DNA of 64,000 nucleotides from a virus. Its lineage: Duplodnaviria > Caudoviricetes. The stretch covers positions 1 to 64,000 of the IMG/VR virus record IMGVR_UViG_2595698890_000001; one strand, written 5' to 3'. The position numbers were made by a program, and so were the translations under genes. Under the pieces are notes generated by a model. The model made no database searches. It was not told the DNA's origin and saw nothing but the letters and a program-made list of their open reading frames with translations. Positions 219 to 64,000 of the stretch are shown here, piece by piece (the stretch's first letter is position 1; each line of letters opens with the position of its first letter).

Positions 219-926
219 ATGGGGGATTTTACTAAAATGGAAATAACATCGCGGATGTTCGTTAGCGACACTCCGTGCAAACGTGGACACGACCCGATAC
301 GCTACAAACGTACTAATGCCTGTGTGTTCTGTGCGAGGATTCGTAACCGCTACCGTAACATGATTGGACGTTGCCATGACCCAAAGCACCATAAGTACGA
401 GGATTACGGCGCACGTGGCATTACAGTGTGTCAGAGATGGCGTGAATCGTTCGAAGACTGGTACGAAGACATTGGGCAGCACCTAGTGGGCACCGACCTG
501 TCTATGGACCGTAAGAACAACGACGAGGGCTATTACCCGGGGAACGTGCGCATTGCAACTCCCGGTATGCAGAATCGTAACCAACGCCGCTCTGTACTAA
601 TAACGTATGACGGTATTACTAAAAACGCTACGGATTGGGCTACCGAGTTGGGGATGAAGCCTCACACTATTAGCGCGGGGTTTAAACGGGGAGTGCCAGT
701 TGAGGAACTTCTCTTTAACGTAAAGGTCTGTGAAGTATCGCGTGGGCATATTGAGATCCAGCGGGGAGGAAGACGGATGTGTCTTGCTGCTTGGTGTAGA
801 TTACTAAAATATTCCATACGTACAGTTGAAGACCGTGTTTATAAATTCGGTTGGAGCTACGCACAAGCATTGGGCTTTGCACCCCGTAAAGGGAAACTTC
901 GACCACCACCTACTAAGAAGGATTAG
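219..926 (+). CDS. HNH-type homing endonuclease-like protein
   Basis: MIGRC..YGARGITVC.RW..F..D..LSMDRKNND.GY.PGNVR.AT...QNRN motif typical of phage HNH endonucleases, followed by a putative DNA-binding tail. Confidence 0.75.
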   Translation: MGDFTKMEITSRMFVSDTPCKRGHDPIRYKRTNACVFCARIRNRYRNMIGRCHDPKHHKYEDYGARGITVCQRWRESFEDWYEDIGQHLVGTDLSMDRKNNDEGYYPGNVRIATPGMQNRNQRRSVLITYDGITKNATDWATELGMKPHTISAGFKRGVPVEELLFNVKVCEVSRGHIEIQRGGRRMCLAAWCRLLKYSIRTVEDRVYKFGWSYAQALGFAPRKGKLRPPPTKKD

Positions 927-930
927 TACA

Positions 931-1152
931 ATGGCTACAGAGCACCGTACGCTAGTAGTGGCATCCAAGGGACGTATGCCTTACGATGAGAAACACTACT
1001 ACCACTCCGGGAAGCCGGGTGAAGATGTTACGTTAGTAAACGAACGTAACTTCAAAACGGTACAGGGGAAGAAGTTCGACCTTGTGCTTTTCGTAGGGAA
1101 CATTGACGGCGAGACCCGTCGTAAATTCGCAGCATTGATAGGAGATTACTAA
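931..1152 (+). CDS. hypothetical protein
   Basis: ATG at 931 after AAGGA; tightly packed with neighbours. Confidence 0.6.
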   Translation: MATEHRTLVVASKGRMPYDEKHYYHSGKPGEDVTLVNERNFKTVQGKKFDLVLFVGNIDGETRRKFAALIGDY

Positions 1153-1153
1153 G

Positions 1154-5745: not shown

Positions 5746-5753
5746 GGATTACT

Positions 5754-5777
5754 AAGCCCCTTAATTGGGGCTTTTTT
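5754..5777 (+). terminator. intrinsic terminator
   Basis: AAGCCCC-ttaatt-GGGGCTT followed by T run. Confidence 0.8.
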
Positions 5778-5787
5778 GTATCTGTAG

Positions 5788-5815
5788 TTGACATAAGAAA
5801 CTACGAGCGTATAAT
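5788..5815 (+). promoter_or_regulatory. sigma70-type promoter
   Basis: TTGACA-16-TATAAT. Confidence 0.8.
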
Positions 5816-5851
5816 TCATTACTAACAGTCACTCACAAGGAGTTTACTAAA

Positions 5852-6841: not shown

Positions 6842-7375
6842 ATGGCTACTATCACCAACCTACAGAAAGTACTTATCCACTTCGTGGCTACTGGCAAAGA
6901 CGTTACTGGCTACCAGATCGCACACCACTGCATGGCTGAGCACGACCTGCACTGGACTGCTTCTCACCAACAGGTGTACCGCGAACTGCGCCGCCTAGAA
7001 GCAGCTGGTATTCTAACGTGTGAAGAGATTCCGCAGGACGGCAAGCCTAACAAGTTCATCTACCACCTAACTGAAGACAAAGGCGTCAAGGCTTACGATG
7101 ACCTCCGCGCTCACGAGCCGTGCGACTACGTTGGTCTTAACACTCAGGCTACTATCCACGCTCTATTCCCTACGAAAGAGTACTACGCGGCTTACCTACA
7201 GAAGCGTAACGAAGAGTGCGAAGCCTTGTACTTGCGTAAGTGCCAAGACGGTGTTTCCAAGATGGAAGAGGCGCTGATTGACCGTCGTATCTTGATCCTG
7301 CACGCTGAGTGTACGTTCGCCCAGAAGATGCTAATGCTTCTTGACGAAGAAAACCCGGTTGTATCAGAGCAGTAA
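6842..7375 (+). CDS. PadR-family winged-helix regulator, AphA-like
   Basis: TGY.I..., W.ASHQQVYREL, LTC...PQ.GKP....Y..T match Vibrio AphA as recalled; 177 aa, similar length. Confidence 0.85.
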   Translation: MATITNLQKVLIHFVATGKDVTGYQIAHHCMAEHDLHWTASHQQVYRELRRLEAAGILTCEEIPQDGKPNKFIYHLTEDKGVKAYDDLRAHEPCDYVGLNTQATIHALFPTKEYYAAYLQKRNEECEALYLRKCQDGVSKMEEALIDRRILILHAECTFAQKMLMLLDEENPVVSEQ

Positions 7376-11648: not shown

Positions 11649-11659
11649 GGAGATTACTA

Positions 11660-12148
11660 ATGGGATTACTACAAGGCTCCCTATCCGAGATGAAGTCTGG
11701 GGATTTAGGGTTACTAAAAAAATCGGGGCGTCTGTACGAGTGGGACATGCCTCGATTCAAAGGGATCGTAGGTAGGGCAGCACACCCCTCCGCGACGAAC
11801 ATGACTTCCGGGCTTGACTTCAACGCGGCTACCTACGAGAACGGGGCTATCATGTTCGAGGTAACTGCGGAAGCGACTGGCGTTGCCATTATATTCGTAA
11901 GCGTGACCTTAGACTCTGTTAGCGGGACTACGACCAGCTTTAAGCTCTTTAAGAACGATGTGGGTGTGTTGCACTCAGAGCGTCACGTCGGCTTCTCCGA
12001 GTTGTCAGGCAACAAGGAGATGACTTCTCCTTCGACCATCGTAGTGCCTGTTGAGAAGGGTGATAAGTTGTCATTCCGCGCTCGTGGGAAGGCGGTATTC
12101 GCAAACGCCACTTTTGGCAAGACACGTCTAAAATTACTAATAATTTAG
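11660..12148 (+). CDS. C1q/BclA-CTD-like beta-sandwich protein
   Basis: Pattern L.KN.....TIVVPVEKGDKLSFR typical of C1q-like folds (inference). Confidence 0.45.
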   Translation: MGLLQGSLSEMKSGDLGLLKKSGRLYEWDMPRFKGIVGRAAHPSATNMTSGLDFNAATYENGAIMFEVTAEATGVAIIFVSVTLDSVSGTTTSFKLFKNDVGVLHSERHVGFSELSGNKEMTSPSTIVVPVEKGDKLSFRARGKAVFANATFGKTRLKLLII

Positions 12149-12157
12149 GAGTACACA

Positions 12158-12637: not shown

Positions 12638-12652
12638 CGCACCACTATAGAC

Positions 12653-12678
12653 AAGCCCGCCAGATGGTGGGCTTTTTT
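12653..12678 (+). terminator. intrinsic terminator
   Basis: AAGCCCGCC-agat-GGTGGGCTT plus T run. Confidence 0.8.
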
Positions 12679-12722
12679 CTTTTAACGTATAGTCAACTAG
12701 GTTTTTACTAAGAGTAACGGAG

Positions 12723-14267: not shown

Positions 14268-14302
14268 GTCACTAGGCGAACCAGACTTCCTTCGGGAAAC
14301 CC

Positions 14303-25275: not shown

Positions 25276-25705
25276 AGACCTAAAGCATTTCGCTTTTACC
25301 CTCCAAGCTAATACCGAAACAAGGCAGCGTGAAGTTGCCTTGACCATCACCCGCGAGTTAATGCAGCGAAACCCTAAGAAGACGGGCAGATCCGCAGGTA
25401 ACTGGCAGGTTGGTGTCAATCGCCCTAAGTTAATAGTCCAACAGCCCCCTGACCCTGAGAAGGTGAAGTCGGGTGAGATTAGTAAAACAGCCCACGCATT
25501 CGTAAAGAAACAACTTACTAAAGCTATAAGCGAAATTACTAATTCTCCACTGTCTGGATTAGACCCGGTGATTTACATTAGTAATACTGTTGACTATGTA
25601 GTTTTACTAAACACCATTCGACCATCAAAACAGGCAGCACCGGGTTGGATTGAATCCTCTATCCGTTTCGGAGCTGACAGCACTAAAGGGGTGAAATTAA
25701 GCTAA
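25250..25705 (+). CDS. HK97 gp10-like tail completion protein
   Basis: NP.KTGR..GNW, IYISN.V.Y...L...S.QA..GW. Confidence 0.8.
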   Translation: MADFSEIPKDLKHFAFTLQANTETRQREVALTITRELMQRNPKKTGRSAGNWQVGVNRPKLIVQQPPDPEKVKSGEISKTAHAFVKKQLTKAISEITNSPLSGLDPVIYISNTVDYVVLLNTIRPSKQAAPGWIESSIRFGADSTKGVKLS

Positions 25706-37110: not shown

Positions 37111-37119
37111 AACTATAAC

Positions 37120-37145
37120 AGGGAGCTTCGGCTCCCTTTATTTTT
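37120..37145 (+). terminator. intrinsic terminator
   Basis: AGGGAGC-ttcg-GCTCCCT plus T-rich tail. Confidence 0.8.
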
Positions 37146-37165
37146 ACTAATGTGAGATTACTAAA

Positions 37166-44448: not shown

Positions 44449-45062
44449 TGGCTTTACTAAGACGTAGAGTTATCCACACACCAACTAAGAGCGGGCGCTT
44501 ACGCGCTCGCCTTGTCGTTGAGAAGGTTACTAATAGTAAACCGACTACCCGCAAGCGCAAGAAGCGCCTAAAGGATTCCCTTCACAGCCAGCTATGCCTA
44601 CTAGCCAAGAAGTGGATCTACAAGCAGGGGTTTGGGGTAGCCGTGGATGACAGGATGAAAGCTGCCTGTGTTACCGGAGAGCAGCCGGACGCTTTAGGGT
44701 GGAGAGCTAGCGTTAGCATTCTGATCGAGGTCAAGACATCCCGAAGCGACTTCCTTGCCGACAAGAACAAGAAGTTCCGGGCAGACCCGTCGATAGGGAT
44801 GGGAGACTGGCGCTTTTACCTGTGTCCTAAAGACCTAATTAGTAAAGATGAGCTCCCGGAAGGTTGGGGGCTTCTCTACTATAGCGACGGCAAGATCCGT
44901 CGGGTGCACGGTGGTCCTAAAAGCAACGGGTGGACGTTCGACTCAATACCCTTCCGTGGTAATAAAGAGTGTGAGATGTCCTACATGTATTCGGCTCTCA
45001 GACGTATGGTAGTACGAGGTCACTTAGAGTCTATGTATTCAATGGACGGCATTAAGAAATGA
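44448..45062 (+). CDS. PD-(D/E)XK nuclease-like protein (MmcB-like)
   Basis: E.PDA.G....SILIEVKTSRSDF.AD..K..R, ELPEGWGL. Confidence 0.75.
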   Translation: MALLRRRVIHTPTKSGRLRARLVVEKVTNSKPTTRKRKKRLKDSLHSQLCLLAKKWIYKQGFGVAVDDRMKAACVTGEQPDALGWRASVSILIEVKTSRSDFLADKNKKFRADPSIGMGDWRFYLCPKDLISKDELPEGWGLLYYSDGKIRRVHGGPKSNGWTFDSIPFRGNKECEMSYMYSALRRMVVRGHLESMYSMDGIKK

Positions 45063-46183
45063 GTATTTTCAAACGTAAGGGCGTGGAAGCATGGCTTGAG
45101 ATCTTCAACAAGCATAGCATCACGTACGCAACTAAGCATAAGAACTGTAAGCGGGGCAACGTCGTAATTGACTGCCCTTTCTGTGCTAACTCTGAAGGCA
45201 AGTTCCACATGGGTGTGGACAAGAACGGTCGTTTCGGTTGCTGGAAGAACCAAGAGCACCGTGGGTCCTCCCCGCACAAGCTGCTCGTAGCACTGCTTCG
45301 AATCTCCCCGGCAGAAGCCTCCCGTATGGTGGGCGCTGACGAGGGTCAGGTAGACGAGGATGACTGGAACTCTTTACTAAGAAGTCTGAGTACGTGGGAA
45401 GAAGAAGACTACCCGGAAGACGACGACGAGGAAGAGGATGAGATAGTTAAGGGTATGAAGATGCCTAAGCAGTTCATCCCGGTAGCTCCGTTCGGAGACG
45501 CCGCCGATTACTTCTACTACATCATGGACCGTGGGTTTCCTCGGAAGGATGTTCGCAAATTAGTAAAACACTTCGACCTACGCTGTTGCGATACTTGGGA
45601 TCGTGTTGCCGGGAAGATTTGGTACGAGCGTATAATCACGCCAGTGTGCTTACATGGCGAGTTAATGTGTTGGGGTAGCCGAACCATAAACCCAGACGAC
45701 GAGCTGCGCTACATGTCCCTGCCAGCCGATGAGAGTATCATCCCCGTTAAGGAGTTGGTGTACAACTACGATAACTGCATGGAGGGCGGCAAGATACTTC
45801 TTTTAGTAGAGGGTCAGGTGGACGTGTGGAAGTTGGACTTCTACGGGAAAGAGCACGGGATACGCGCAGCTGGTCTTTTTAGTAAATCTATCGTACCATC
45901 TCAGGTAGACCTAGTGCATGACCTGAAGAAGCAGTTCGATCACACGTTCCTACTACTCGATGCGAACGAGGAAGCCTACGGACTTTCTTTGTGTGATTTA
46001 CTAAACGGGTACGGGAAGCGCGTTAAAACCCTCATCTGGGATGGTAACGACGAAGACCCGGGAGCGGCTACTTACAGAGAGCTAGAAACTTTTTTTAAAA
46101 AATTACTAAAAAAGACTTTACTAAAACGAACGAGGTCGGTACTATTACCTCGCTCCCAACGAAAGGGGACAAGAAATGAATGA
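45059..46183 (+). CDS. DNA primase
   Basis: Zn finger CPFC...CW, RI.TP, LYN-like, VEG..D, LD TOPRIM, DPG. Confidence 0.88.
   Translation: MSIFKRKGVEAWLEIFNKHSITYATKHKNCKRGNVVIDCPFCANSEGKFHMGVDKNGRFGCWKNQEHRGSSPHKLLVALLRISPAEASRMVGADEGQVDEDDWNSLLRSLSTWEEEDYPEDDDEEEDEIVKGMKMPKQFIPVAPFGDAADYFYYIMDRGFPRKDVRKLVKHFDLRCCDTWDRVAGKIWYERIITPVCLHGELMCWGSRTINPDDELRYMSLPADESIIPVKELVYNYDNCMEGGKILLLVEGQVDVWKLDFYGKEHGIRAAGLFSKSIVPSQVDLVHDLKKQFDHTFLLLDANEEAYGLSLCDLLNGYGKRVKTLIWDGNDEDPGAATYRELETFFKKLLKKTLLKRTRSVLLPRSQRKGTRNE
46117..46145 (+). promoter_or_regulatory. putative promoter whose -35 overlaps a TTACTAA site
   Basis: TTTACT-17-TACTAT; CGAGGT/ACCTCG dyad around the -10. Confidence 0.55.
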
Positions 46184-47224: not shown

Positions 47225-48385
47225 ATGACTCTGACTAAAGCAATCCTAGAAGAACTTATCCAAGCAACTAACACTCCACGTGCAAAGCGTGACTCTCACG
47301 AGAAACACTTGCAGAAGATTGTTAAAGCTGTCGGCGCTCTTGACGACGATGCTTGGGACGCTCTTTCCGATGAAGCTGCGGAATGGTACAATGATGCCGT
47401 AAATGCAATTAACGACGGTCAAGACATCCCGGGCTCTGAAAAAGACCCGATGGAAGCCGAAGAAGAAAAACCAGCGCGTTCACGCCGTGGACGTAACACT
47501 AAAACTGAAGAAACGGAAAACCAACCAATGAAAAAAGTACTTGTAGCAATCGCACTAGCAGAAGTAGTTAAAGGCATCACAGCAACTGTAGTTTGTGGCG
47601 ATGACACTTTTGAAGGCGAAGTAATTGCGGTTACTAAGAAAGGTCGCGGCAAGAACGCAACTGTTGAAGAGTTCACTCTGAAAACAGCTGACGGTGAAGA
47701 AGTGTTTGGTGCTGAAGACTTGATCTTCGACGAAGGCGACAAGATCGAACGTCACGACGAAGCTCCAGCGGAAGAAGAGAAGAAGCCTTCTCGCTCACGT
47801 CGCGGCGCTAAGAAAGACGAAGAGCCAGCGGCTGAAGAAAAACCTACACGCTCTCGCCGTGGTGCTAAGAAAGAAGAGCCGAAGCCAGAGCCTGTTGAAG
47901 TTGAAACAGAAATCGCATTCAACGACATCGCTAAAGGCGACAAGCTGAAGCTTCAAGTTGAAGACGACGCTTTCGAAGGTGAAGTTAAAGCGGTTAAGAA
48001 ATCTGGTCGCGGCAAGAACGCTAAAGTAGCAGAGTTCACTCTTACTACGGCAGACGGCGAAGAAGTCTTCGAAGCAGACCACATTGTGGTTGAAGAAGGC
48101 GACAAGATCATCCGCGTTACTATGGAAGAGCCTAAAGCGGAAGCCGCTGGCGAAGAGAAGAAAACTGGTTCTCGTCGCGGTCGTGGTGCTAAGACAGGTG
48201 GTGCGGAATCAGCAGCTCACCAAGTACGTCGCCTAATCTGTGAAAACATGGACGCGGACAAGAAAGAAATCGAAGAGTTGATGGCTGAAAACGGCATCGA
48301 CATGAAACCTTCAACTTTCGACGTGCTATACAGCGAAGCGCACAGCCTAATCGGTGTTCTTCGTGAACTAGACAAGTTGGCATAA
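47225..48385 (+). CDS. highly expressed acidic/basic protein with duplicated domain
   Basis: Two copies of FEGEV.AV.K.GRGKNA.V.EFTL.TADGEEVF..EGDKI; repeated EEKP.RSRRG; optimal codons. Confidence 0.85.
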   Translation: MTLTKAILEELIQATNTPRAKRDSHEKHLQKIVKAVGALDDDAWDALSDEAAEWYNDAVNAINDGQDIPGSEKDPMEAEEEKPARSRRGRNTKTEETENQPMKKVLVAIALAEVVKGITATVVCGDDTFEGEVIAVTKKGRGKNATVEEFTLKTADGEEVFGAEDLIFDEGDKIERHDEAPAEEEKKPSRSRRGAKKDEEPAAEEKPTRSRRGAKKEEPKPEPVEVETEIAFNDIAKGDKLKLQVEDDAFEGEVKAVKKSGRGKNAKVAEFTLTTADGEEVFEADHIVVEEGDKIIRVTMEEPKAEAAGEEKKTGSRRGRGAKTGGAESAAHQVRRLICENMDADKKEIEELMAENGIDMKPSTFDVLYSEAHSLIGVLRELDKLA

Positions 48386-49011: not shown

Positions 49012-50070
49012 ATGGCAACACTAGAGAAAGCCCATCTACAGCGCGTCCTCAACTTCATCAAGCCCGCACTATCACCACACGACTTTGTACCCGTGCTATC
49101 ACACTTCTGTTTCACGGCAGACGGTGATGTTTACGCGTATAACGACCTAGTTGGTGTTACGGTCCGCGAGCATGACTTCGGAATCGTGGGCGCGTTGCCG
49201 GGTAAGGATTTACTAAAAGTAATAAGCTCGTTTGGCAAAGCTGATATTCAGATCGAAGAGCTTGACAGCGGAGCGGGTGTGCTTATCAAGTCGGGACGTT
49301 CTAAGACCAAGCTGGCGATGCTTGGTGAGGACGACTTCGTGTACGACCCAGTTACTAACTCAGGGCTAGAGCCTCGCGTAGAGTTGGAGCTTTCCGAGGA
49401 AATCCTCGCGGCGTTCAAGAAGTGTATTACCGGGATCGGGGACGACCCTACTTGTCCGGCTCAGATGGGTGTGACTGTAACCGACAACTTCTTGTTCTCG
49501 ACAGACAACATCACAATCACCGCATACGAGTTTGAGGACCCAATTGAGGGGATTGGTCAGGTGATACTTCCAAAACAGTTCTGTGAGCTTGTGACAGAGC
49601 TTTCTAAGTACAATAAGTCGGAGGTCATCACCCTGTCGTTCTACGACGACAACGTGACGGCTATTTTGGAGGACGAGAGCGTGGAGATCACCACTCGTTT
49701 GATTAGCGACGATGAGCCGTTCGACTTCGAAGGCGTTCTAGAGTCATTCCTAGAAGATGACAACTTAGTAAAAATACCAACTGAGTTCAAGGACATGTTC
49801 GCCCGTGCCGAGGCTGTTTTAGGCAAAGGCGACGATGCCTTACTAAAAGTTCTGGTTGAGGACGAGGTTCTGTCTATCACCGCCAAGTCTGCCACCATCG
49901 AGCTTGATGACGAGTGCGATATGGATGCCGACCCGATCTCATTCCTAGTGGATGCTGGGATGGTAGCCCGGGCATGTAACTTCACATCGCACGTAGCACT
50001 ACTGGACTCCGCCATGTTCTTCAGCGACGGTGGGGCGTTCTACCACTTGATTAGTCACGGAGAGGAGTAA
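49012..50070 (+). CDS. DNA polymerase sliding clamp (beta/DnaN-like)
   Basis: 352 aa, P.LSHF N-terminus, GV...STD, VILPK.F, ITTRLI...F; adjacent to polymerase. Confidence 0.8.
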   Translation: MATLEKAHLQRVLNFIKPALSPHDFVPVLSHFCFTADGDVYAYNDLVGVTVREHDFGIVGALPGKDLLKVISSFGKADIQIEELDSGAGVLIKSGRSKTKLAMLGEDDFVYDPVTNSGLEPRVELELSEEILAAFKKCITGIGDDPTCPAQMGVTVTDNFLFSTDNITITAYEFEDPIEGIGQVILPKQFCELVTELSKYNKSEVITLSFYDDNVTAILEDESVEITTRLISDDEPFDFEGVLESFLEDDNLVKIPTEFKDMFARAEAVLGKGDDALLKVLVEDEVLSITAKSATIELDDECDMDADPISFLVDAGMVARACNFTSHVALLDSAMFFSDGGAFYHLISHGEE

Positions 50071-50072
50071 CT

Positions 50073-52727
50073 ATGGGCTTCTTCCATCAAAAGGGAGCTA
50101 AGGGCGGCAACCGCCGCCTTACGGGTAAGCAGCAAGCGTTCGAGCAGCAGAAGCATTTACTAAAGTCTGTTGGCGCTAAGAAGTTCGAAGGTGTGGGTGT
50201 TCAGCCGTGTGGTTCTGAGGACCCGGTAGTGTACCTGCTAGGGCTTACCCCAACCCCTAACCAACTACGTCGTGGGGACCTTACTAAAGGCGAGACTGCG
50301 CAGGTTATGCGTAAGTATTTTGGTCGTGACTTCTACTATGAGGATTGTCGCCACGGTGCTGTTGTGCGCGAGACTTTTGCCGAGTTGGACGAGGTTATCG
50401 ACGACGTTGTGATCGAGCAGTGGCGTGGTCTGACAGAGCGGGATATAGAAGAGTCTAAGCCAGCGGTAGTAGTCGCACTTGGTGCGGGTGCGTTGCGCTT
50501 CCTAACCGGGTCTGCGGACATCCACGGTATGCACGGTCGCATGTTACCCCACAAGATCGGTAATCATACGTTCTGGATACTCCCGGTGTTCGACCCTCGC
50601 TGGGTGATTAGTAAAGAGCACGACTTCTTCGTCAATGAGTACGAGGTCTGTGTTAAGACGCAAATCACTCGCCTTATGGATAGCATCGAGACCGGGACAT
50701 TGCCAGAGCCTGTAGTCTACGATAGTGGTTACGACGATGGCATCGAGATCATCATGGGTGAGGGCATCCAAGACGTGCACCGCGTAGAAGATGCGCTCCA
50801 TGACATGCTACGAGAACCGCTAGTATCTGTGGACTACGAGACACAGAACCTACGCCCGTACTTGGACGACTCTCGCTTACTAACTACCGCAGTGGGCACC
50901 TTCGACCGCACGGTAGCCTTCCCGGTAGACCACCCTAGAGCGTGGAACAACAAGACCCGCCGCCAAGTGATCGGGTTGTGGGGTGAGTACCTAGCGCAAG
51001 CGCCGAGGGCTATCGTGTACAACGCTACAATGGAGCAAGAGTGGACAGCGCACTACTACGGGTACAGCAACCTACGTAAGACGCAGTGGGAAGACTTGAT
51101 GGCAGCAGCCTACTGTCTGGACTCCAGAAAGGGGCATCTGTCGTTAGACGATTTCATCAAGTATAACTGTGGATTCGACTTGAAGAAGCTGTCCGGCAAG
51201 ATGAACAAGGCTAACATGGTAGGCGAGCGTCTAGACCGTGTGCTTATGTACAACGGACGAGATGTTAAGTGGACGTTCAAGGGCTTCGAAATCGGCATGG
51301 ACCGCCTGAAGCGTGAGGGAGAAGAACGACCTTACCACACTAAGGTACGCAACTCCGCTGCTCTTACCGGAATGCAGATGCGTGGTATGCCCCGTAATGA
51401 GGACGCCTTGTACGAGCTACAAGATACTCTTACTAACGATATTGCGGACGCAGAGGATGAATTACTAAACACCCCTGAAGTTCGGAAGTTTGAGCGCCAG
51501 CACGACACCGAGTTTAACCCGTCGTCACCGGACCACAACGTAACACTGTTCCGTGACATCCTGAAGCGTCCAGAGGGCAAGAAGGAGGGTAAGGGCAAGG
51601 ACGGTAAGCCTAAGTACAGTACGGACGAAGCTGCCTTGAGTTCCATGCCAGCAGACGAGTGTCCGTCGGCACCGTTGATACTAAAGTTGCGCGGTTTTAG
51701 TAAGTTAAAGTCAACCTACGTAGATGGCTTACTAACGCCCGTGACAGAGTTCATTGGGGACGAGAAGAAGCGTAAGGGGCTTGTGTATCCGGACGGACTA
51801 CTGCACCCTAACTACAACGGTATGTTTACTGCCACCGGGCGTCTGTCCTCGGATGAGCCGAACGCACAGAACTTCCCTAAGCGTAAGAATCGACACATCC
51901 GTAAGCCGATTGCACCGCCTCCGGGCTTCCGGGTAGTATCGCTCGACTTTGGTCAGATTGAAGCACGTGTATTCGGTATGGCATCACGAGATCCGAACTT
52001 CTGTAATGCGCTGTGGAATAATCTGGACGTTCACTTTGACTGGGCTGTTAAGATTAGTAACGAGTACCCGGCTATCTTGGACCGTATCTACGAGGAGTAC
52101 TACGATAAGGTAAACAAGATGGTAGACGGCGGGGTCAAAGAGTACGATGCGTTGATCAAGTGTCTTCGTGGCGACGTTAAGAACCAATGGGTGTTCCCTC
52201 AGTTCTTCGGCGCGGGCTTTAAGTCTTGTGCTCAAAGCCTCCACATCCCGGATGATAATGCGGAGTATCTACGAGAGATGTTCTGGGACGAGTTTGCCGG
52301 AGTACTAGAGTGGCAGAACGAAACACTAGAACGTGCTTACCGCAATGGCTTCGTACGCACCCTGAATGGCTTTAAGCGTTCGTTCCCTATGAGTAAGCAG
52401 GAGATCATCAACACGCCGATTCAGGGCACAGCGGCTGAAGTAGTACTAGAAGGCTTGTGCTTACTAAGTGAGGAATCTGCCCTGCTAGAAGACGTGTACA
52501 TGCACCCAATCATGCAGATACACGATGACTTGACCTTCATCATGCCTGAAGACGGCATGGACGAGCGTATAGCTCACGTAGCGGAGATCATGACTGGTGT
52601 TTACCGCACCTTTGACTTTGTTAACGTACCACTGCTCATCGAGGCTGAAGAAGGTCCCGACTGGTGTGACCAGAAAGTCTACGGTGAATACTCATCCACG
52701 CAGTTCGGACACGTTCGAGCTGATTAA
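50073..52727 (+). CDS. family A DNA polymerase with N-terminal UDG-like domain and 3'-5' exonuclease
   Basis: VVVALGA.AL (UDG-F4 fold), DYET exo [34 protein letters not shown]. Confidence 0.93.
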
Positions 52728-52774
52728 TACATGACCTCCCCCGGGAGGTCTTTAACTTTAGTAAAGAGGAAATT

Positions 52775-53614
52775 ATGCAACAATACCTCGCATTAGCACA
52801 GCGCATCATTGACGAGGGTGTGCTAGTAGAGAACCAGCGTACCGGGAAGAAGTGCCTAACGGTAATCAACGCAGACCTTACCTACAACCAACTACCCTTA
52901 GTAACAACCCGCAAGAGCTTCTGGAAAGCAGCTGTAGCCGAACTGCTTGGGTACATTCGTGGATACAGCAGTGCCGAAGATTTCCGAAAGCTGGGAACCA
53001 CCACTTGGGACGCTAACGCCAACAAGAATGAAGCTTGGCTTAATAACCCGTACCGCGTGGGCAATGACCACATGGGGCGTGTTTACGGTGTGCAGGGACG
53101 ATCTTGGGCTAAGCCGGATGGCGGTACTGTGGACCAGCTCAAGAAGATTGTGGATAATCTTACTAACGGTATCGACGACCGTGGGGAGATCCTGAACTTC
53201 TACAACCCGGGCGAGTTCCACATGGGATGCCTACGCCCGTGCATGTACAGCCACCACTTCTCACTGCTAGGAGACACCCTGTATCTCAACAGCACACAAC
53301 GCTCTTGTGATGTACCTTTGGGTCTGAACTTCAACATGGTTCAGGTGTACGTGTTCCTAGCGATCATGGCTCAAATCACCGGGCACAAGATGGGCACCGC
53401 GCACCACAAGATCGTGAACGCTCATATCTACGAAGACCAGATAGATCTCATGCGCGACGTACAGTTAACCCGAGAGCCGCTAGACCCACCCGTGTTGTGG
53501 ATCAACCCGGACATCAAGACACTAGAAGACTTGGAGACTTGGGTAACACTGGACGACTTTGATGTCTTTGGCTACAAACACCATGATCCAATAAAATATC
53601 CATTCACTGTTTAG
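52775..53614 (+). CDS. thyA: thymidylate synthase
   Basis: [26 protein letters not shown]; Vibrio/Pasteurella-type sequence. Confidence 0.97.
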
Positions 53615-53627
53615 TAAGGAGTACCAG

Positions 53628-54560
53628 ATGGAAACAAAACCACTACACGTAACACTACGCCCACAGACCTTTGATGAGATCATCGGTCACGACGCCGTAG
53701 TAAAAGACGTGCAGAACCAGCTAGACAGCAACCAACGCTGTTACTTATTCATGGGACCTCCCGGGTGTGGTAAGACTACTTTCGGCAATGTAATTGCTCG
53801 CCACGTAGAGTCTGAGAACGTGATCGAAGTAGACGCGGGCAGTACCAGTAAGGCAGAACAGGTCCGTGAGCTTGTGGAGAAAGCCAAGTACAAGGGCTTC
53901 GGCAAGAACCCTATCCGCGTGTACATCATCAACGAGGTACAGGCTTTTAGTAAAGCGTCATGGGATGCGATGCTGGACATCATGGAAAGCCCTCCGGCTC
54001 ATGTGTACTTCATTCTAACTACCACGGAATCTACTAAGGTTCCTAAAGCCGTCAAGACTCGCTGCGCTTCATACGAGCTAAAACCGCTGAACAAGAAGGC
54101 TCTGAACGAGCTTGTAGACTTCGTGCTGGATGAGGGTGAGCTGGACGTTCCAGAAGAGTTTATTGACGTTGTGATTAGCAAGTGCGAGGGCTCCCCTCGA
54201 CAGCTGATCCAGTTCCTCCTAAAAGCGGAGTCAGCCGCAAGTCGCGCCGACCTAAATACGCTGTTGGATGAGGCTGACGACGATAAGCAGATCATCGACC
54301 TTGCCCGTGCCCTCGCGTTTACTAAAGGTAAAAAGTGGAGTAAAGTGCAGGAGATCTTGAAAGACCTCAAGGACACTCCACCGGAGAGCATCCGAATCGT
54401 AGTCACTACTTACGTGTCCGGGTGTATGCTGAACGCCAAGTCGGAAGCTGAAGCTGAGAAGTTCCACCGTATCTTGGACGCGTTCTCCACGCCGTGTAAC
54501 CCCACTGACAAACTAGGTCCGATTTTACTAGCTTGCGGTGATATTTGTTTCGGGGAATAA
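53628..54560 (+). CDS. clamp loader AAA+ subunit (DnaX gamma/tau-like)
   Basis: RPQTFDEIIG, GPPGCGKTT, IINE, E.PP.HV.FIL.TTE..K.P...TRC. Confidence 0.9.
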   Translation: METKPLHVTLRPQTFDEIIGHDAVVKDVQNQLDSNQRCYLFMGPPGCGKTTFGNVIARHVESENVIEVDAGSTSKAEQVRELVEKAKYKGFGKNPIRVYIINEVQAFSKASWDAMLDIMESPPAHVYFILTTTESTKVPKAVKTRCASYELKPLNKKALNELVDFVLDEGELDVPEEFIDVVISKCEGSPRQLIQFLLKAESAASRADLNTLLDEADDDKQIIDLARALAFTKGKKWSKVQEILKDLKDTPPESIRIVVTTYVSGCMLNAKSEAEAEKFHRILDAFSTPCNPTDKLGPILLACGDICFGE

Positions 54561-54565
54561 AATAA

Positions 54566-55057
54566 ATGTCGTATGACACTTCAGAAACTGCAATCCGATC
54601 ATTTAAGGGTCGCCTACGTATAGATAAGAACGATTTGGACAACGAGCTTGTTGAGCAATCGCACTTATTCTTCGAGGTATCAGAACGCCTTACTTGGGCG
54701 AAAGCAGAACGCGACGAGATTAAGCGCGAATGCGATGAACTTGCCGGGGAGATCAAAGCGGAGATATTCGCGGATAACCCTAAGATGGCAGACACCAAAG
54801 CTACAGCTTTAGTAAAGAAGGACGCAGATTTTATTGAGCGTTACCGAGAAAAAACTGAAGCGGATCGTATAGTTGGAGCATGGGAGGCGCTTGTAGAAGC
54901 ATTCAAGTCTCGCGGCTACATGCTCCGTCAACTGGCGGACCTGTATGTAGCGAACTACTACTCTCCGATTAGTGGTGGTGAATCGCAAGATGACAAGCGT
55001 CGTAAGAGTGCCGAGCGCACAGAGCGTAGTGAAAGCAGAAGACGACGGAGCAGATAG
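54566..55057 (+). CDS. UvsY-like recombination mediator (putative)
   Basis: L.ID...LD.E...Q, helical, EAF..R.YML..L; upstream of SSB and RecA. Confidence 0.55.
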   Translation: MSYDTSETAIRSFKGRLRIDKNDLDNELVEQSHLFFEVSERLTWAKAERDEIKRECDELAGEIKAEIFADNPKMADTKATALVKKDADFIERYREKTEADRIVGAWEALVEAFKSRGYMLRQLADLYVANYYSPISGGESQDDKRRKSAERTERSESRRRRSR

Positions 55058-55190
55058 TTATGGAGCATTTACCAGCACTAGCGGGAATTGTGGTAATATC
55101 CCCTATCGCCATTTACGCAGCAGCGCGTATGGCTACCAAGGCTTACTTTTTCAGTAAGCTAGAGTTTCTTACTAAAGTTAAAACAAAAGG

Positions 55191-56363
55191 ATGGCAATAA
55201 TGTCAAGACGTGATCGTAACAGTCGTGGTGGTCGTAAAGGTTTCGAGTACAAGAAACGTTCTAAAGAGCAGGTACAGAAACGTGCCGACCAGTCTTCAGG
55301 CGACTTTAAGTCAATCTTCAAAGACGGCATTAAGCTGTTTAAGCCTAAGAAGGGCGACAACGCAATCCGCATCCTCCCGGCTACTTGGGAAGACCCGGAC
55401 CACTACGCACTAGACGTGCATGTCCACTACGGTGTTGGTGCTGACGAAGAGCGCGTGCTAGCACTACACGAGATGTTAGGTGAAGATGACCCAATCCGTG
55501 AGATGCGCATGGACTACGAGCAAGCTGGCAACAAGGAGATGGCTAAGGCTTGTCGTCCGGGACGTGCTTGTGCGATGTGGGTAATCGACTTGGACAACGA
55601 AGCTGAAGGTCCGCAGATGTACCTAGCGCCACCTACGGTAGACGCTGGTATCGCGCAGGTTAGTATCGACAAGCGTTCTGGTGAGATGTACGACATTGAC
55701 GACCCAGACAACGGCTACGAAGTCTACTTTACTAAACAGGGCGAAGGGATGAACACGAAGTACGTGGGCTTCCAGATTTCACGCAACCCATCTGAAGTAG
55801 ATGAAGAGCACTTAGATTACGCCATCGAGAACCCAATCCCGGACTGCTTAGTTTACTTAGAGTACGACGAGATTGCTAAGATGATCGACGGCTGGGAACC
55901 AACTCCACGCGGTAAAGGTGGTAAAGACGGTGGTAAAGAAAAGCCTAAATCATATCGCGGACGTGACCGTGATCGCGGTGACGACGCTGATGATAGCCGC
56001 AGCCGTCGCGGTGGCAGCGACGATAGCAAGTCTGGCGGTGATCGCGGTGAAGGTGATTACCAATACGATGACGTTATGGCGGCAGACTGGGAAGAGCTTG
56101 AGCAGATTATCGAGCTTGAAGAACTTGACATTGACCCAATGGACTTTGACGAAGATGACCAAGAAGGCTGTGCTAAAGCAATCTGTGAAGAACTGGGCAT
56201 TGAGAAACCTAAGCCTACTCGCTCTGCTCGCGGTGGCTCTCGTCGTAGCCGTGGCGGTGATAGTGACGATGGTGATTCTCGATCTTCCCGCCGCCGTGGT
56301 CGTGGCGACGACGGTGATGACAGCTCTGAACGCGTTCGCGGTATGCGTCGAAATCGTCGCTAA
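55191..56363 (+). CDS. single-stranded DNA-binding protein (gp32-like) with disordered D/R/G tail
   Basis: FKPK.GDN.IRILP, H.HY, D.D.G......G.G..TKY. Confidence 0.75.
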   Translation: MAIMSRRDRNSRGGRKGFEYKKRSKEQVQKRADQSSGDFKSIFKDGIKLFKPKKGDNAIRILPATWEDPDHYALDVHVHYGVGADEERVLALHEMLGEDDPIREMRMDYEQAGNKEMAKACRPGRACAMWVIDLDNEAEGPQMYLAPPTVDAGIAQVSIDKRSGEMYDIDDPDNGYEVYFTKQGEGMNTKYVGFQISRNPSEVDEEHLDYAIENPIPDCLVYLEYDEIAKMIDGWEPTPRGKGGKDGGKEKPKSYRGRDRDRGDDADDSRSRRGGSDDSKSGGDRGEGDYQYDDVMAADWEELEQIIELEELDIDPMDFDEDDQEGCAKAICEELGIEKPKPTRSARGGSRRSRGGDSDDGDSRSSRRRGRGDDGDDSSERVRGMRRNRR

Positions 56364-56392
56364 GTATCGTAAAGAAGTAGATTAGTAAAACC

Positions 56393-56415
56393 AAGGGAGG
56401 CGAAAGTCTCCCTTT
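56393..56415 (+). terminator. intrinsic terminator
   Basis: AAGGGAGGC-gaaa-GTCTCCCTT. Confidence 0.7.
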
Positions 56416-56432
56416 CGTTAGTTCTGGAGAAA

Positions 56433-57074
56433 GTGAAAATGACTCGTGGTGTTATCGTAGCAATTGAGGGCTTTGACGGCTCAGGCAAATCAACTCTTAC
56501 TAAGCAGTTAGTAGAAGAGCTTAGTAATTACAACGTTCGTGTAGTGCAAACTCGTCAACCGGGCGGGACTCCCTTCGCGGAAGAAATCCGCTCCTTACTA
56601 ATGACCGGGCAGCGTGACCGCAGCCAGCGTGTCGAAGCACATCTATTCCTAGCCGCTCGACACGACTTATACGACAAGCTGATCCAGCCCGAAGTAGAAG
56701 CGGGTAGTATTGTGGTCTGTGACCGACATTACATCTCATCCCTAGCCAACCAGCCGGAATGTGCCGAGATGTTCCTACAAGACCGTGTGTTTGACCCGGA
56801 CGTGTGGATCATGGCTCGATGCCCATTCCCGGTGTGTATTACCCGCAGTGAAGCGCGTGGCGATACGGACGCGTTCAGTGATGACGACCTAGTGGAGAAG
56901 CGTGCCCAGTATGACCGCTACCAGCACGGCTTACGCTCGGCTAAGCAATTTAGTGCTACCGACTCAATCTTTACCATCGACACGGACCTAGGATTAACAA
57001 GCTCACGTGAGCAGGTGAAGAAGGTTGCCAGCTACATCGTAAACCTAAACAAACAACGTCCGTATAATTCATAG
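56433..57074 (+). CDS. tmk: thymidylate kinase
   Basis: IEGFDGSGKST, TRQPGGT...E.IR, LF.AAR, CDR...S..A.Q. Confidence 0.92.
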   Translation: MKMTRGVIVAIEGFDGSGKSTLTKQLVEELSNYNVRVVQTRQPGGTPFAEEIRSLLMTGQRDRSQRVEAHLFLAARHDLYDKLIQPEVEAGSIVVCDRHYISSLANQPECAEMFLQDRVFDPDVWIMARCPFPVCITRSEARGDTDAFSDDDLVEKRAQYDRYQHGLRSAKQFSATDSIFTIDTDLGLTSSREQVKKVASYIVNLNKQRPYNS

Positions 57075-57102
57075 TGTTCAATGCACTTTAAGGTTAGTAA
57101 AA

Positions 57103-58215
57103 ATGACAGAAACAAGACGCCGCCGTACTAAAGCTGTTGAGAAGGACGAGGCTAAGAAGCCACGTACACGCCGCTCAAAAGCTCCAGAAACGGCTTCAGA
57201 AGAAAAACCGAAGGAACGTGCGAACGCGTACTTCGTATCCACGGAGAAAGGCGTGGAGGGCTTTTCTACCGGGTGTTGTTTGTTCGACCAAGCCCTAGGT
57301 GGTATCGGGTGGGCTACCCGTCGTATCATCAACATCGTAGGTGACAAATCGACTGGTAAGACACTCTTAGCCATCGAAGGTATGATCAACTTCCACCGCA
57401 CCTTCATCGATCAGAACCCGCGTATCATTTACAAGGAGTGTGAATCCGCGTTCGACGAGCCGTACGCAGCTGCTCTAGGCTTACCACTGGACGACATCGA
57501 GGTAGACGACGACCTTGATACCGTGGAAGACATGTACGAAGACATCGAGCGCATCGTTATGGAAGCAGAGCGAGACCCGCGCCCTATACTGTACATCGTG
57601 GATAGCTTGGATGGTCTAAGTGACCGCGCGGAACAGGGTCGTAAGATTGACGAAGCCAGCTATGGTCAGGATAAGGCTAAGAAGCTTTCAGAGTTCTTCC
57701 GTAAGAAGAAGAAGGTGATGTCTAAGGCTAACATTACTTTACTAATAGTAAGCCAGATTCGTGATAACATTAACGCCGCTGCCTTTGGTAAAAAGTCAAA
57801 GCGCTCAGGCGGCAAGGCTTTGGACTTTTATTGTAGTCAAGTAGTGTGGCTAGCAAACCTAGGCAAAGTGACTAAGGCTGTCAAAGGCAAGAAGCGTATC
57901 GTTGGGGTAGACATCCGAGCAGCTATCGAGAAGAACAAGGTGGGCAACCCATTCCGCACCGCCGATTACCCGATAATTTTTGGGTATGGCTGTGATGACA
58001 TCTACGCTTCCGTTGAGTGGCTACAGTCAAACGTGGGCTGGGATGTGCTTGAGGACCTAGGCTTCAAGAAGACCACCTACAAAGCTATGTGCGCTAAGAT
58101 CCGCGATAAAGGTGGTGTAGAGGCTAAGGAGTTACGGGAGAAGCTGAACGCCTTAGTAATCCACCACTGGCAAGAGATAGAGCTAGATCTTATGCCTCAA
58201 AGCAGCAAGTATTAA
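57103..58215 (+). CDS. recA: RecA/UvsX-like recombinase
   Basis: STG...D.ALG.G, G.KSTGKT, IVDS, SQIRD, GG.AL.FY.S, KNKV..PFR. Confidence 0.92.
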   Translation: MTETRRRRTKAVEKDEAKKPRTRRSKAPETASEEKPKERANAYFVSTEKGVEGFSTGCCLFDQALGGIGWATRRIINIVGDKSTGKTLLAIEGMINFHRTFIDQNPRIIYKECESAFDEPYAAALGLPLDDIEVDDDLDTVEDMYEDIERIVMEAERDPRPILYIVDSLDGLSDRAEQGRKIDEASYGQDKAKKLSEFFRKKKKVMSKANITLLIVSQIRDNINAAAFGKKSKRSGGKALDFYCSQVVWLANLGKVTKAVKGKKRIVGVDIRAAIEKNKVGNPFRTADYPIIFGYGCDDIYASVEWLQSNVGWDVLEDLGFKKTTYKAMCAKIRDKGGVEAKELREKLNALVIHHWQEIELDLMPQSSKY

Positions 58216-62232: not shown

Positions 62233-62849
62233 TGCTAAATTTTACTGTTAGTAAAACTAACCTGATTATGTTCCCGTGGGTTCGTAACACACTCGTAGCG
62301 GAAGACACACAGCCTTGTATCAGCGGCGTGTTTAACGTTAAGTTTGTGCTCAACGCAGAGTCTCAATCGGACTCGGAAGAGATTGTGGACCACTCATTCA
62401 TCGACGCCTATGCGGGCATGATCGCGGACTTGTTCCGTGATACTAACATCGTGTGGGATAAGGACGAGGCTGGGCGTACGGTGGCGAAGTCCATCCACGA
62501 GTCTTACCCTCGCACTCGAATCCTGACAACGCCGTACAACCCTACTATGGAGAACGTAGCCGGGATGTTCTACGCGATTATGCACCGCGTGCTGTGTGCT
62601 AGTAACTTTACTAACTCGGAAGACCCGGACCTATGCCTTGTGTCTGTAGTGCTGGAAGACGTAACACGTGGGCATTCGGCTGAGTGTACGCAGTGGGCGC
62701 ACGAGGGGCGCTACATGAAGAACGGTGCACAATTCCATTGGACGGAATCCATCACGGACTTATCTGAGTTTGACGTGGTATCACTTTTTACTGAGGACGT
62801 TCGTATAGGTGTTCCAGTAGCAGGTACTACGGTAGACAAGTATGAGTAG
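62232..62849 (+). CDS. QueD/PTPS-like T-fold protein, catalytically degenerate
   Basis: IVD.S.I, NPT.EN.A, L.SV.L.D pattern of QueD; N-terminal His/Cys ligands absent. Confidence 0.6.
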   Translation: MLNFTVSKTNLIMFPWVRNTLVAEDTQPCISGVFNVKFVLNAESQSDSEEIVDHSFIDAYAGMIADLFRDTNIVWDKDEAGRTVAKSIHESYPRTRILTTPYNPTMENVAGMFYAIMHRVLCASNFTNSEDPDLCLVSVVLEDVTRGHSAECTQWAHEGRYMKNGAQFHWTESITDLSEFDVVSLFTEDVRIGVPVAGTTVDKYE

Positions 62850-63201
62850 CCAAGAATTACAAATTAACGATGTCGTGGAAGTGGTGGTTACGTCTAACCA
62901 CTTCCTTGAGATGTTTAACAAGGTGGGTCGTATAACCAAGAAGCACGGCTCATTTTACTGGGTAAAGTTCAAGTTTAATTTTAGTAACGACAATAAGCAT
63001 TTACACGTTTACGACCAAGTAGACTTTGGACCTTTCAGCATCAACCAACTAAAACTATTGGAGAAATCAGAAAATGACTCAAGCAGCGAAGAAAGTACTA
63101 AGCCTGTCGCAAATCGTAGGAAAGTTCGCCGGGTGCGTAATCGAATTGAACCGCAACCAGTTCCCCGCCCAACTAGAAGGCGTCGTGCAAGACTTAACTA
63201 A
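62842..63201 (+). CDS. small SH3/KOW-like protein with Arg-rich tail
   Basis: INDVVEV...KVGRI......Y.VKF ... F...QL. Confidence 0.5.
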   Translation: MSSQELQINDVVEVVVTSNHFLEMFNKVGRITKKHGSFYWVKFKFNFSNDNKHLHVYDQVDFGPFSINQLKLLEKSENDSSSEESTKPVANRRKVRRVRNRIEPQPVPRPTRRRRARLN

Positions 63202-64000
63202 CCACTTTAAGTTTTTCTCGCAGAACCTAGGCGGCGTAGACATGGTGGATTACAGTCGTAGTGAGTTCTACGACTTACTAGAGGAGTACTTGAACCAAGA
63301 TACTCGTTGTTGGGAATGGAACAAGCCGGACGGTGATGGGCACTTTATTGACCTTACTGCGCTAGTGCAGAACGTAACCTACGAGTTGTACGGTCCGACT
63401 TCTACAGTTCATGAAGTACCGCCGAAGAATGACTACAGCCGACTAGACAGTTTCGATAGTAAGAAGACTGTTAAGGCTGCGGTAATTGCGGCATTCTCGG
63501 TAGAGCGTCGTGAAGTAGAAGTGTGCATCGAAGGTGACGACACTAACCCGATTGAAGTAATCAAAGTAACTGACGACTTCTTCGCACGCTCACTGCCTGT
63601 AGCTGGTCAATCTGTTTTAGTAATCTATGAGAACGGCTACCAGTCACACAGCCCGTTAGACGTGTTTACTAAAGGCTATGACCGTGCGTTCGCAATCAAC
63701 GACCCGGCAACTACGATGCCTACACACGCTTACGTAGAGAGCTGCCTAGGCACCTTGTCACAAGACTACTTTGAGCCGGATGCGACGATCATCAACTGCA
63801 TGAAAGAGTTCATCATTAGCGGCAACGTTCTAGATGGCTACAAGAAGTCTACTTTCTATGGGCGTGAGCGTCCAGTCGTGGATCTGGCGGAGAAGTTGGA
63901 GATCGCGGATATTGCAGACTGGCGTCGTCTTGAGCGTAAAGAACAAGCCTTGTTCCACGCGGTGATCGGTATGGCTACTGAGAGTACGGAGCTGGTAGAG
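63074..64000 (+). CDS. multidomain protein with MazG-like nucleotide pyrophosphohydrolase domain (3' truncated by window)
   Basis: My translation: MTQAAKK...KTVKAA...YENGYQSHSPLDVFTKGY...LDGYKKSTFYG...LFHAVIGMATESTELVE; GGAG RBS; absent from ORF track because there is no stop. Confidence 0.7.
   Translation, partial: MTQAAKKVLSLSQIVGKFAGCVIELNRNQFPAQLEGVVQDLTNHFKFFSQNLGGVDMVDYSRSEFYDLLEEYLNQDTRCWEWNKPDGDGHFIDLTALVQNVTYELYGPTSTVHEVPPKNDYSRLDSFDSKKTVKAAVIAAFSVERREVEVCIEGDDTNPIEVIKVTDDFFARSLPVAGQSVLVIYENGYQSHSPLDVFTKGYDRAFAINDPATTMPTHAYVESCLGTLSQDYFEPDATIINCMKEFIISGNVLDGYKKSTFYGRERPVVDLAEKLEIADIADWRRLERKEQALFHAVIGMATESTELVE

Follow-up and report, generated by a model that had tools for sequence, protein, structure and literature searches.

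The known phenomenon closest to the one reported here is HIP1 (GCGATCGC) of cyanobacteria. In the available parts of the pertinent papers, it is described as an exact short palindrome that is 15- to 300-fold over-represented genome-wide, genes included, and conserved in position within and between reading frames, with a function that was long unknown (PMC5861425, PMC4390886). In the same parts, its conservation is argued to reflect selection and not biased repair (PMC5861425), and HIP1 is said to be recognised by two orphan methyltransferases and recently linked to transformation and DNA uptake (PMC4390886, PMC13756078). Here we describe an array of the word TTASTAA (S, C or G) that runs through a window of 64,000 nucleotides, with which a virus record of 78,751 bp begins (IMGVR_UViG_2595698890_000001). 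Like HIP1, TTASTAA is about 30-fold enriched, positionally conserved and imprinted on codon and amino-acid choice. However, HIP1 is an 8-bp, G+C-rich word of even length on cellular chromosomes, whereas TTASTAA is a 7-bp, A+T-rich pseudo-palindrome of odd length in lytic phages, is rare in the host, and occurs in phages that gave no match to three methyltransferase families of Pfam. The likeness to HIP1 lies in abundance and conservation, and does not extend to a methyltransferase.

Chi, KOPS and the uptake words DUS/USS are also over-represented short words, read along a whole replicon by a protein machine. They are asymmetric and strand-biased, while TTASTAA is symmetric, with 166 copies of one form and 128 of the other on one strand; moreover, uptake sequences are enriched in the bacterium's own chromosome and TTASTAA is depleted in the Vibrio hosts. 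ParB-family and nucleoid sites (parS, Noc-binding sites, SlmA sites, matS) are scattered palindromes that are bound by dimers and organise DNA, and the window phage resembles these systems in having a ParB-like gene with six motif copies in the 250 bp upstream. In contrast, ParB, Noc, SlmA and matS sites measure 12-16 bp, and a chromosome of megabase size has tens of them, as against 300 TTASTAA per 79 kb, and a second motif-rich phage (G002, below) is without the ParB N-terminal domain. The identical word, with the same 3-1-3 half-sites around a central C/G, is that of the fungal Yap1/AP-1-type bZIP sites (TTA(C/G)TAA, TGA(C/G)TCA), and in the literature searched, part of it available in full, "TTASTAA" was spelled out only in yeast and fungal Yap1 papers. 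These are eukaryotic transcription-factor sites in promoters, not genome-wide arrays, and their identity only shows that a symmetric dimer can read a 3-1-3 word.

As in chemical self-marking (7-deazaguanine via DpdA; hydroxymethyl bases), the phage DNA is distinguishable from that of the host. The distinguishing feature here is, however, the base sequence, and no modification genes were detected in the motif-rich lineages (DpdA, QueC and FolE by BLASTP; three methyltransferase Pfam families). By analogy, the array may be functionally equivalent to chemical self-marking. Phage genomes usually avoid palindromes, and the over-representation of TTASTAA is the opposite. A full-text search that covered part of the literature, supplements being outside its scope, found no description of TTASTAA in phages, in agreement with the original prediction that no such phage system has been described; the searchable text of the OPA17 paper does not mention the motif.

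Abundance, placement and conservation of the sites

The record was assigned by megablast to Mardecavirus, a genus of Vibrio siphophages, and the earlier guess of a Vibrio phage was right. Vibrio phage R01 showed 93% identity over 81% of a 14-kb query, and SSP002 plus about 38 other Vibrio phages about 78-79% DNA identity to the window phage; for one relative (record PV702358.1) the host field gives the laboratory strain Vibrio natriegens Vmax. All called genes and large reading frames of the window lie on the + strand and, according to the annotation of R01 and SSP002 and to our own scans, run from early genes through packaging, head and tail to lysis and a large replication/recombination module.

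The window holds 136 TTACTAA and 87 TTAGTAA, i.e. 223 exact sites (the first at 229, the last at 63666-63672), while base composition predicts 7.5, so that the excess is roughly 30-fold; the reversed, non-complemented control AATSATT occurs only twice (nine times in the whole record). The gaps between window sites have a median of 245 bp and reach 1133 bp at most. These figures bear out the manual count of the original prediction, which gave about 220 copies against about 8 expected and largest gaps of about 1.1 kb. Over the whole record there are 294 copies (166 of the C-form and 128 of the G-form on the + strand), while Markov models of order 1-3 lead to an expectation of 5-20 copies per form (z = 72 for the order-2 model). 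TTASTAA is the commonest 7-mer of the window and the other top 7-mers all overlap it, the best one that does not being CTTCTTC with 47 copies. The word is sharply defined: its 38 one-mismatch neighbours are at background level (0-13 copies each), TTAATAA and TTATTAA appear 5 and 6 times, and few TASTAA hexamers are not preceded by the leading T (about 50 of about 340). Outside the core, the predicted A/T extension is weak but present, T at -1 and A at +1 being found in 50% of the non-coding and 42% of the coding sites in a mirror-symmetric manner, and G at -1 is disfavoured (8-15% of sites). In bins of 4 kb, no switch point between C- and G-forms was seen along the record.

Extending the count to related phages, as had been proposed, yielded 286 copies in R01 and 300 in SSP002, next to the 294 of the window phage, and thus 286-300 in all three Mardecaviruses counted. 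In these genomes the spacing was slightly more even than random (coefficient of variation 0.83-0.87 versus 0.99, P < 0.01; 0.87 at short range in the window-phage record), and the largest gap was about 1.15 kb where about 1.6 kb was expected. The array and its most distinctive parts, of which the promoter- and terminator-like elements are putative and read from the sequence, are as follows.

229..63672: array of 223 TTASTAA sites, which runs on to 294 over the 78,751-bp record
5749..5850: three sites between genes, around a hairpin of terminator type and a promoter-like stretch (TTGACA...TATAAT)
11654..11660: site forming a stop/start junction, TTACTAATG; likewise at 16059-16065 and 22893-22899
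25479..25610: cluster of five sites within 132 bp, in a tail-module gene
26470..26593: cluster of four sites in the tape-measure gene (gene name from the R01/SSP002 annotation)
37104..37244: densest cluster of the window, six sites in 141 bp, which takes in a hairpin of terminator type between genes as well as the start of the gene that follows, and lies a short way upstream of the replication module
66786-66987 of the record (beyond the window): six sites within about 200 bp, directly upstream of the ParB-like gene and overlapping TTGAC-type promoter-like boxes

Of the sites in the whole record, 206 fall in coding sequence, the other 88 being non-coding or at gene edges. Since non-coding DNA makes up 11.7% of the record and yet has 88 of the 294 sites, it is about 3-fold denser in them than coding DNA. 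By eye, the non-coding sites were often at stop/start junctions, before terminator-like hairpins or within promoter-like stretches. Within genes, the motif is confined to the two frames that create no in-frame stop (TTA-STA-A, 88 sites; xTT-AST-AAx, 112 sites), and in six further cases it provides the stop codon itself. These frames agree with the L-L/L-V and x-T/S-K readings that the original prediction had listed. Only two reading frames of at least 600 nt are without any motif in the window, namely 18775-19572 (scaffold/protease-like) and the one listed here.

46522-47154: motif-free gene for a 210-aa protein of the replication module, family not assigned

A possible explanation for these counts is that the motif is a by-product of codon usage, amino-acid composition, off-frame stops or a repeated protein motif, and it is true that it includes TAA and TAG and that 10 of the 100 stop codons of the record fall within a copy. 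Nevertheless, when codons were shuffled synonymously within genes, so that the protein and the per-gene codon usage were preserved, the 202 copies observed fell to 20.7 +/- 4.4 (maximum 36 in 300 shuffles), and shuffling of the codon order left 8.1 +/- 2.7. The enrichment thus withstands an amino-acid-preserving null, a check that had been suggested, and the assertion that TTASTAA is not a protein motif is borne out by the same shuffles. The higher density in non-coding DNA, the rarity of TASTAA without its leading T and the conservation of synonymous positions (86% inside motifs versus 49% outside, see below) also speak against a coding by-product, an explanation that is refuted and to which we assign practically no probability. 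Conversely, the proteins bear traces of the motif. Tripeptides compatible with it are about 2-fold above the expectation from amino-acid composition, and in eight orthologues they amount to 1.24 per 100 aa, versus 0.87 in the motif-poor Edwardsiella phage ZHS, the same eight genes having 30 motif copies in the window phage and one in ZHS. The motif has been created, and then held, wherever coding allows and preferentially in non-coding DNA.

In a whole-genome alignment with R01, 264 of 271 aligned sites were still the motif, as against a background of 72% for 67,064 7-mers. The more distant SSP002 was more informative: 184 of 237 aligned sites were kept, whereas the background was 23% of 58,642 7-mers and non-motif words of matched composition (WWWSWWW) were identical in 105 of 386 cases. 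To separate DNA from protein conservation, we compared codons for the same amino acid in the five types that build the motif, and found 173 of 201 identical inside motifs and 504 of 1027 outside (86% versus 49%; Fisher p = 6e-24), although amino-acid conservation was alike in both (82% versus 77%). The sites are therefore far better conserved than other synonymous positions, which was the comparison on which the original prediction had made its case depend. Among the 184 sites kept in SSP002, the central C and G were exchanged in 14, each flip altering an amino acid (L/V or T/S), and this fits a reader that treats both forms as equivalent. Turnover was balanced (53 sites present only in the window phage and 52 only in SSP002). 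Judged from these alignments, TTASTAA sites are under purifying selection at the DNA level.

The host presents a different picture. Five Vibrio genomes of 4.0-5.8 Mb contained 273-824 TTASTAA (0.07-0.14 sites per kb), about half of the reversed control and a density about 35-fold below that of the phage; this count, which had also been proposed, means one site per ~270 bp in phage DNA and one per ~7-15 kb in host DNA. Such a contrast would make the array usable as a mark of self. A single phage gene illustrates how sites arise.

52775..53614, + strand: thyA, with internal motif sites at 52898-52904 and 53160-53166

The phage ThyA has 79-83% protein identity to ThyA of 80 Vibrio species and, at 83%, is therefore host-derived; the sequences point to a clear and fairly recent host-to-phage gene transfer. 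Both internal sites are also in SSP002, while 77 of the 80 Vibrio orthologues have none. At the first, which lies in a conserved PLVTT peptide, the motif-forming codons occur in only 3 of 79 Vibrio genes; at the second, the motif is in 0 of 69 Vibrio genes, and the N of the phage protein stands against R in 53 of 69 Vibrio proteins. As the sites are missing in nearly all Vibrio orthologues, they were therefore gained after the move into the phage.

A second motif-rich phage and the motif-poor relatives

A three-site pattern scan of IMG/VR revealed, among the matches listed, G002, an unrelated, complete phage of 74,118 bp that has terminal repeats and a G+C content of 33%. Here, too, TTASTAA ranks first among the 7-mers, with 234 copies (z = 38; reversed control, 41), of which the genes hold 192, versus 53 +/- 6 in synonymous shuffles, and the flank preference is the same as in the window phage. 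The G002 terminase is closest (36-38% identity) to those of Cellulophaga, Croceibacter and related phages, a likeness that suggests a host in the Flavobacteriia. By BLAST, PHROG and Pfam comparison of their 143 proteins, the window phage and G002 share only a replication/recombination module, which has the same gene order in both and is composed as follows.

First part: initiator, DnaB-like helicase, SNF2 helicase, Zn-finger/TOPRIM primase
Second part: protein without assigned family, beta-clamp, family-A polymerase with uracil-DNA glycosylase (UDG)-like N-terminal domain
Third part: clamp loader, phrog_1069 protein, SSB, RecA/UvsX, junction resolvase, Mre11/Rad50-like nuclease
45059..46183, + strand: DnaG/T7-type primase with Zn-finger and TOPRIM motifs (phrog_47), common to G002 and also present in motif-poor relatives
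49012..58215, + strand: core of the module common with G002 (beta-clamp, family-A polymerase, (thyA), clamp loader, phrog_1069, gp32-like SSB, thymidylate kinase, RecA/UvsX)

BLASTP between the two phages, strict and relaxed, recovered the clamp loader, RecA, polymerase, primase, clamp and SNF2 helicase, and PHROG and Pfam added only the initiator, mediator-like and Mre11/Rad50 families; other families with several members (phrog_1810, HNH, endonuclease VII) are paralogues within the window phage. The N-terminal domain of the polymerase (50217-50621) belongs to the UDG superfamily, with a weak E = 2.4e-5 in the window phage and E = 4.5e-14 in G002, where two genes, separated by an HNH-like one, make up the polymerase.

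The same module is widespread in phages without the motif, which total about 100. Among IMG/VR loci, 16 of 18 with the primase family lacked enrichment of any word, 78 of 80 with the clamp loader were not enriched (the highest observed/expected ratio being 1.6), and neither were any of the 12 whose RecA is 44-58% identical to that of G002; in addition, none of the 53 metagenome clamp-loader matches listed was motif-rich. The cultured relatives ZHS, Dinoroseobacter phage R5C and Pseudanabaena phage Pan1 showed no enrichment either. When k-mers were counted over the whole records of four motif-poor relatives (G012, G013, G014, G018), no word of comparable excess was found. Palindromes are mildly over-represented in some module relatives. 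On whole records, only G012 (a 91,723-bp IMG/VR record with 39% G+C) stood out, in which the G+C-rich palindromic word CCCGGG(C) has 70 copies versus 12.5 expected; these may be repeated hairpins, and they are far weaker than TTASTAA and of a different kind. Two more finds, from the second pattern scan (G023, G024), were set aside, for the enrichment was only about 2.3-fold and neighbour words were equally common, which indicates another phenomenon. Two pattern scans of IMG/VR thus gave, among the matches listed, at least two motif-rich lineages and, since the module relatives are not enriched, the trait arose, or survives, in just these known ones.

Many of the motif-poor relatives carry genes for a chemical mark. 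DpdA, QueC and FolE (also QueD/E/F), the 7-deazaguanine genes, are found with the same module in ZHS, R5C and Pan1, and DpdA lies within 10 kb of the clamp loader in about 24 of 78 IMG/VR loci. In ZHS the 7-deazaguanine cluster fills the slot between primase and clamp, which in Mardecavirus has only small unassigned genes. BLASTP of the ZHS and R5C DpdA, QueC and FolE against the proteomes of the window phage and G002 gave no match at E <= 0.01; the Pfam TGT model, for its part, also missed the annotated DpdA of ZHS and R5C. PF01555, PF00145 and PF02086 (DNA methyltransferases) had no match in the window phage or G002, divergent enzymes being possible, and the gene at 8479-9129, a "DNA methyltransferase" in the SSP002 record, had no Pfam match. 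Across the supergroup, motif array and DpdA genes may accordingly follow a complementary pattern, and this is only suggestive because several motif-poor loci are also without DpdA in the visible stretch.

Candidate readers and competing explanations

The exactness and symmetry of the word, its symmetric flanks and its exchangeable centre suggest that a protein with two-fold symmetry recognises it on double-stranded DNA. The best reading of the sequence data is that the array would be read by such a protein, sequence-specific for double-stranded DNA, which binds or processes it and is most likely encoded by the phage. Three products of the phage were considered for this role.

6842..7375, + strand: PadR-family winged-helix regulator
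47225..48385, + strand: 386-aa protein, family not assigned, just upstream of the sliding clamp
67027-68073 of the record (beyond the window): ParB-like protein with HTH_ParB and ParB_N domains

The 386-aa protein has charged linkers in which SRRG(R/A) repeats occur; a helical domain is predicted for its N-terminus and a three-helix bundle for its C-terminus, the last 80 residues being modelled with confidence as three helices (pLDDT 85). It is syntenic with a 270-aa protein of G002 and 35% identical to it over the C-terminal 60 aa, a weak BLASTP match. Foldseek of the C-terminal model against PDB gave nothing better than E = 1.8, and the best-ranked chains, all non-significant, were DNA-binding domains such as those of ArgR, CENP-B, StbA and HMG boxes; against the Atlas there was only a poor model and no usable match. 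The family also occurs in motif-poor relatives, which leaves the protein a weak candidate reader, and its window-phage and G002 members do not cluster together. No bZIP was among the best 25 of 140 Pfam families listed for the 143 proteins of both phages.

We tentatively put first the explanation that selection maintains TTASTAA as an array of recognition sites for a protein, by which phage DNA is marked for some function of the phage, while granting it somewhat less than an even share of our belief. A dense genome-wide array of exact sites, read by a symmetric protein that recognises double-stranded DNA, would let a phage function tell its own DNA from that of the host; candidates for this function are replication, recombination, DNA organisation and protection from nuclease. 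Compaction, shielding and packaging, which the original prediction had named, are conjectural uses. The array would then be a mark written in sequence, in the role that chemical base modification has in related phages. A more specific version, which we consider distinctly improbable as a whole, is that two lineages wrote a self-mark into their sequence, in place of the 7-deazaguanine with which many members of the supergroup mark their DNA chemically, and that a phage protein, by reading it, collects or shields phage DNA and keeps host DNA out of replication, recombination or degradation; the clamp-adjacent protein with its charged linkers and modelled three-helix domain is a possible reader in that scheme. 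Several results weigh against a selected array of recognition sites. The original claim of a dimeric reader agrees with the symmetric core, the flanks and the C<->G flips, but the comparison of shared genes did not find the protein: by BLAST, PHROG and Pfam the motif-rich phages share only replication/recombination families and no reader family, and all the shared proteins that were checked are also present in motif-poor relatives. Neither the PadR-like regulator nor the ParB-like protein can be the common reader, the former and the ParB_N domain of the latter being absent from G002. Moreover, G002 has a 5.9-kb motif-free block of tail-fibre genes, which means that no strict spacing is required, sites lost with respect to SSP002 were not replaced nearby beyond chance (P = 0.13), and a conversion drive in a recombining phage population could be the source of the positional conservation.

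Such a drive, which we consider unlikely though the most probable of the rivals, would consist in a sequence-biased mismatch repair or gene conversion of the very-short-patch type, acting on heteroduplex during recombination-dependent replication, so that near-motifs are converted and mutated motifs restored from co-infecting genomes and the sites accumulate and appear conserved without a function. Both motif-rich phages encode RecA/UvsX, a mediator-like protein, a Mre11/Rad50-like nuclease, a junction resolvase and HNH or endonuclease VII-like nucleases; the motif is sharp in an all-or-none way, as would suit recognition of the enzyme type, compensatory turnover is lacking and G002 tolerates its 5.9-kb gap. 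However, the one-mismatch neighbours are not depleted (about 4.8 copies per strand, as expected), no Vsr-type or mismatch-specific enzyme was identified in the motif-rich phages, the UDG-like polymerase domain is also expected in the motif-poor ZHS (full-length polymerase alignment, 38% identity), and the spacing is more even than random in three genomes. In the available text of one paper, biased repair is discussed for HIP1 and its conservation inside and between genes is taken as selection over biased repair (PMC5861425).

The sites could also belong to a nickase or a base-modifying enzyme, producing T5-style single-strand interruptions or a modification of the central G:C, and the chemical change, not the sequence, would be the functional mark. 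We rate this as quite improbable. An exact odd-length palindrome with an S centre is a typical site of restriction-type enzymes, there is exactly one G:C pair per site, relatives with the same module carry DpdA/QueC/FolE genes in the primase-clamp slot, and the window phage encodes several HNH nucleases. But the latter are not common to the two lineages, neither motif-rich phage matched the three methyltransferase families or, by BLAST, the DpdA, QueC and FolE of ZHS and R5C, and enzyme targets are not normally enriched, so that the mark would still have to be useful. We attach little probability to a start word on single-stranded DNA for a primase, initiator or helicase loader, which would have had to be enriched on both strands for priming to be frequent and by which efficient priming would be limited to phage DNA. 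The motif-rich lineages do share a homologous, syntenic replication module with its Zn-finger/TOPRIM primase, the two orientations are nearly equal in frequency, and the ~270-bp spacing is somewhat below typical Okazaki fragment lengths. Against this stand the 16 of 18 primase loci without any enriched word, the presence of the primase family in 8 of 10 further motif-poor relatives, and the fact that the window primase is nearer to that of ZHS (31%, E = 8e-46) than to that of G002 (25.5%, E = 6e-19); furthermore, recognition of a single strand leaves the palindromic core, the symmetric flanks and the C<->G flips unexplained. Very improbable, finally, is the binding of a host protein, by which the phage would recruit or titrate a bacterial factor. 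In the five Vibrio genomes the motif falls about 2-fold short of the reversed control, and the word could matter to the host; yet the G002 lineage, by the likeness of its terminase, probably infects Flavobacteriia, so that a host factor would need the same 7-bp specificity in two phyla, and the closest relatives of each lineage are without the motif.

Neighbouring genes and meaning of the array

Besides the array, the record shows features of its own, among them a set of putative anti-defence genes and a recurrent domain.

3161-3946: protein with a Tad2-like domain (Thoeris inhibitor), E = 1.6e-18, anti-defence set
63074-64000 (to 64258 in the record): Tad5-like protein, "MazG-like pyrophosphatase" in relatives, E = 1.1e-25, anti-defence set
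65023-65682 of the record (just past the window): Acb3-like CBASS inhibitor, E = 3.5e-81, anti-defence set
3188-3430, 4713-4889, 5287-5505 and 58256-58528: copies of the phrog_1810 domain

The phrog_1810 domain, to which no function is assigned, forms the N-terminal ~80 aa of four different window-phage proteins, where it is joined to varied C-terminal parts that include the Tad2-like domain and a BRCT domain; it was not found in G002. The gene at 5254-5745, annotated as "DNA ligase" in relatives, encodes 163 aa whose sole Pfam match is the BRCT domain, and Pfam detected no ligase catalytic domain in it. The R01 alignment does not cover the stretch 9984-12650, in which there is a 554-aa reading frame unmatched in Pfam; it begins only at base 2686 of the query 9984-24341. 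The motif density of the uncovered stretch is as usual (8 sites in 2.7 kb), and the stretch was probably exchanged within a pool of motif-bearing phages.

In this phage roughly 2,000 bases of the genome are kept unchanged at the level of the DNA, and protein sequences, too, have been shaped by the motif. At least 40 isolates of the genus have been sequenced for phage therapy in aquaculture and food safety, and in the literature searched the motif is unmentioned. For the engineering or recoding of such phages, synonymous changes at about 300 places are not neutral. A small lytic phage with hundreds of sites that can be recoded synonymously makes the system easy to test. If a reader protein exists, it would point to a way, new for viruses, of separating self from host that needs no chemical modification, and it would be relevant to the degradation of host DNA, to replication compartments and to counter-defence. 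Should the array indeed prove to be a sequence mark, no virus would previously have been described with a self-identity system encoded in its sequence, and the HIP1 problem, still unsolved, would gain a tractable model.

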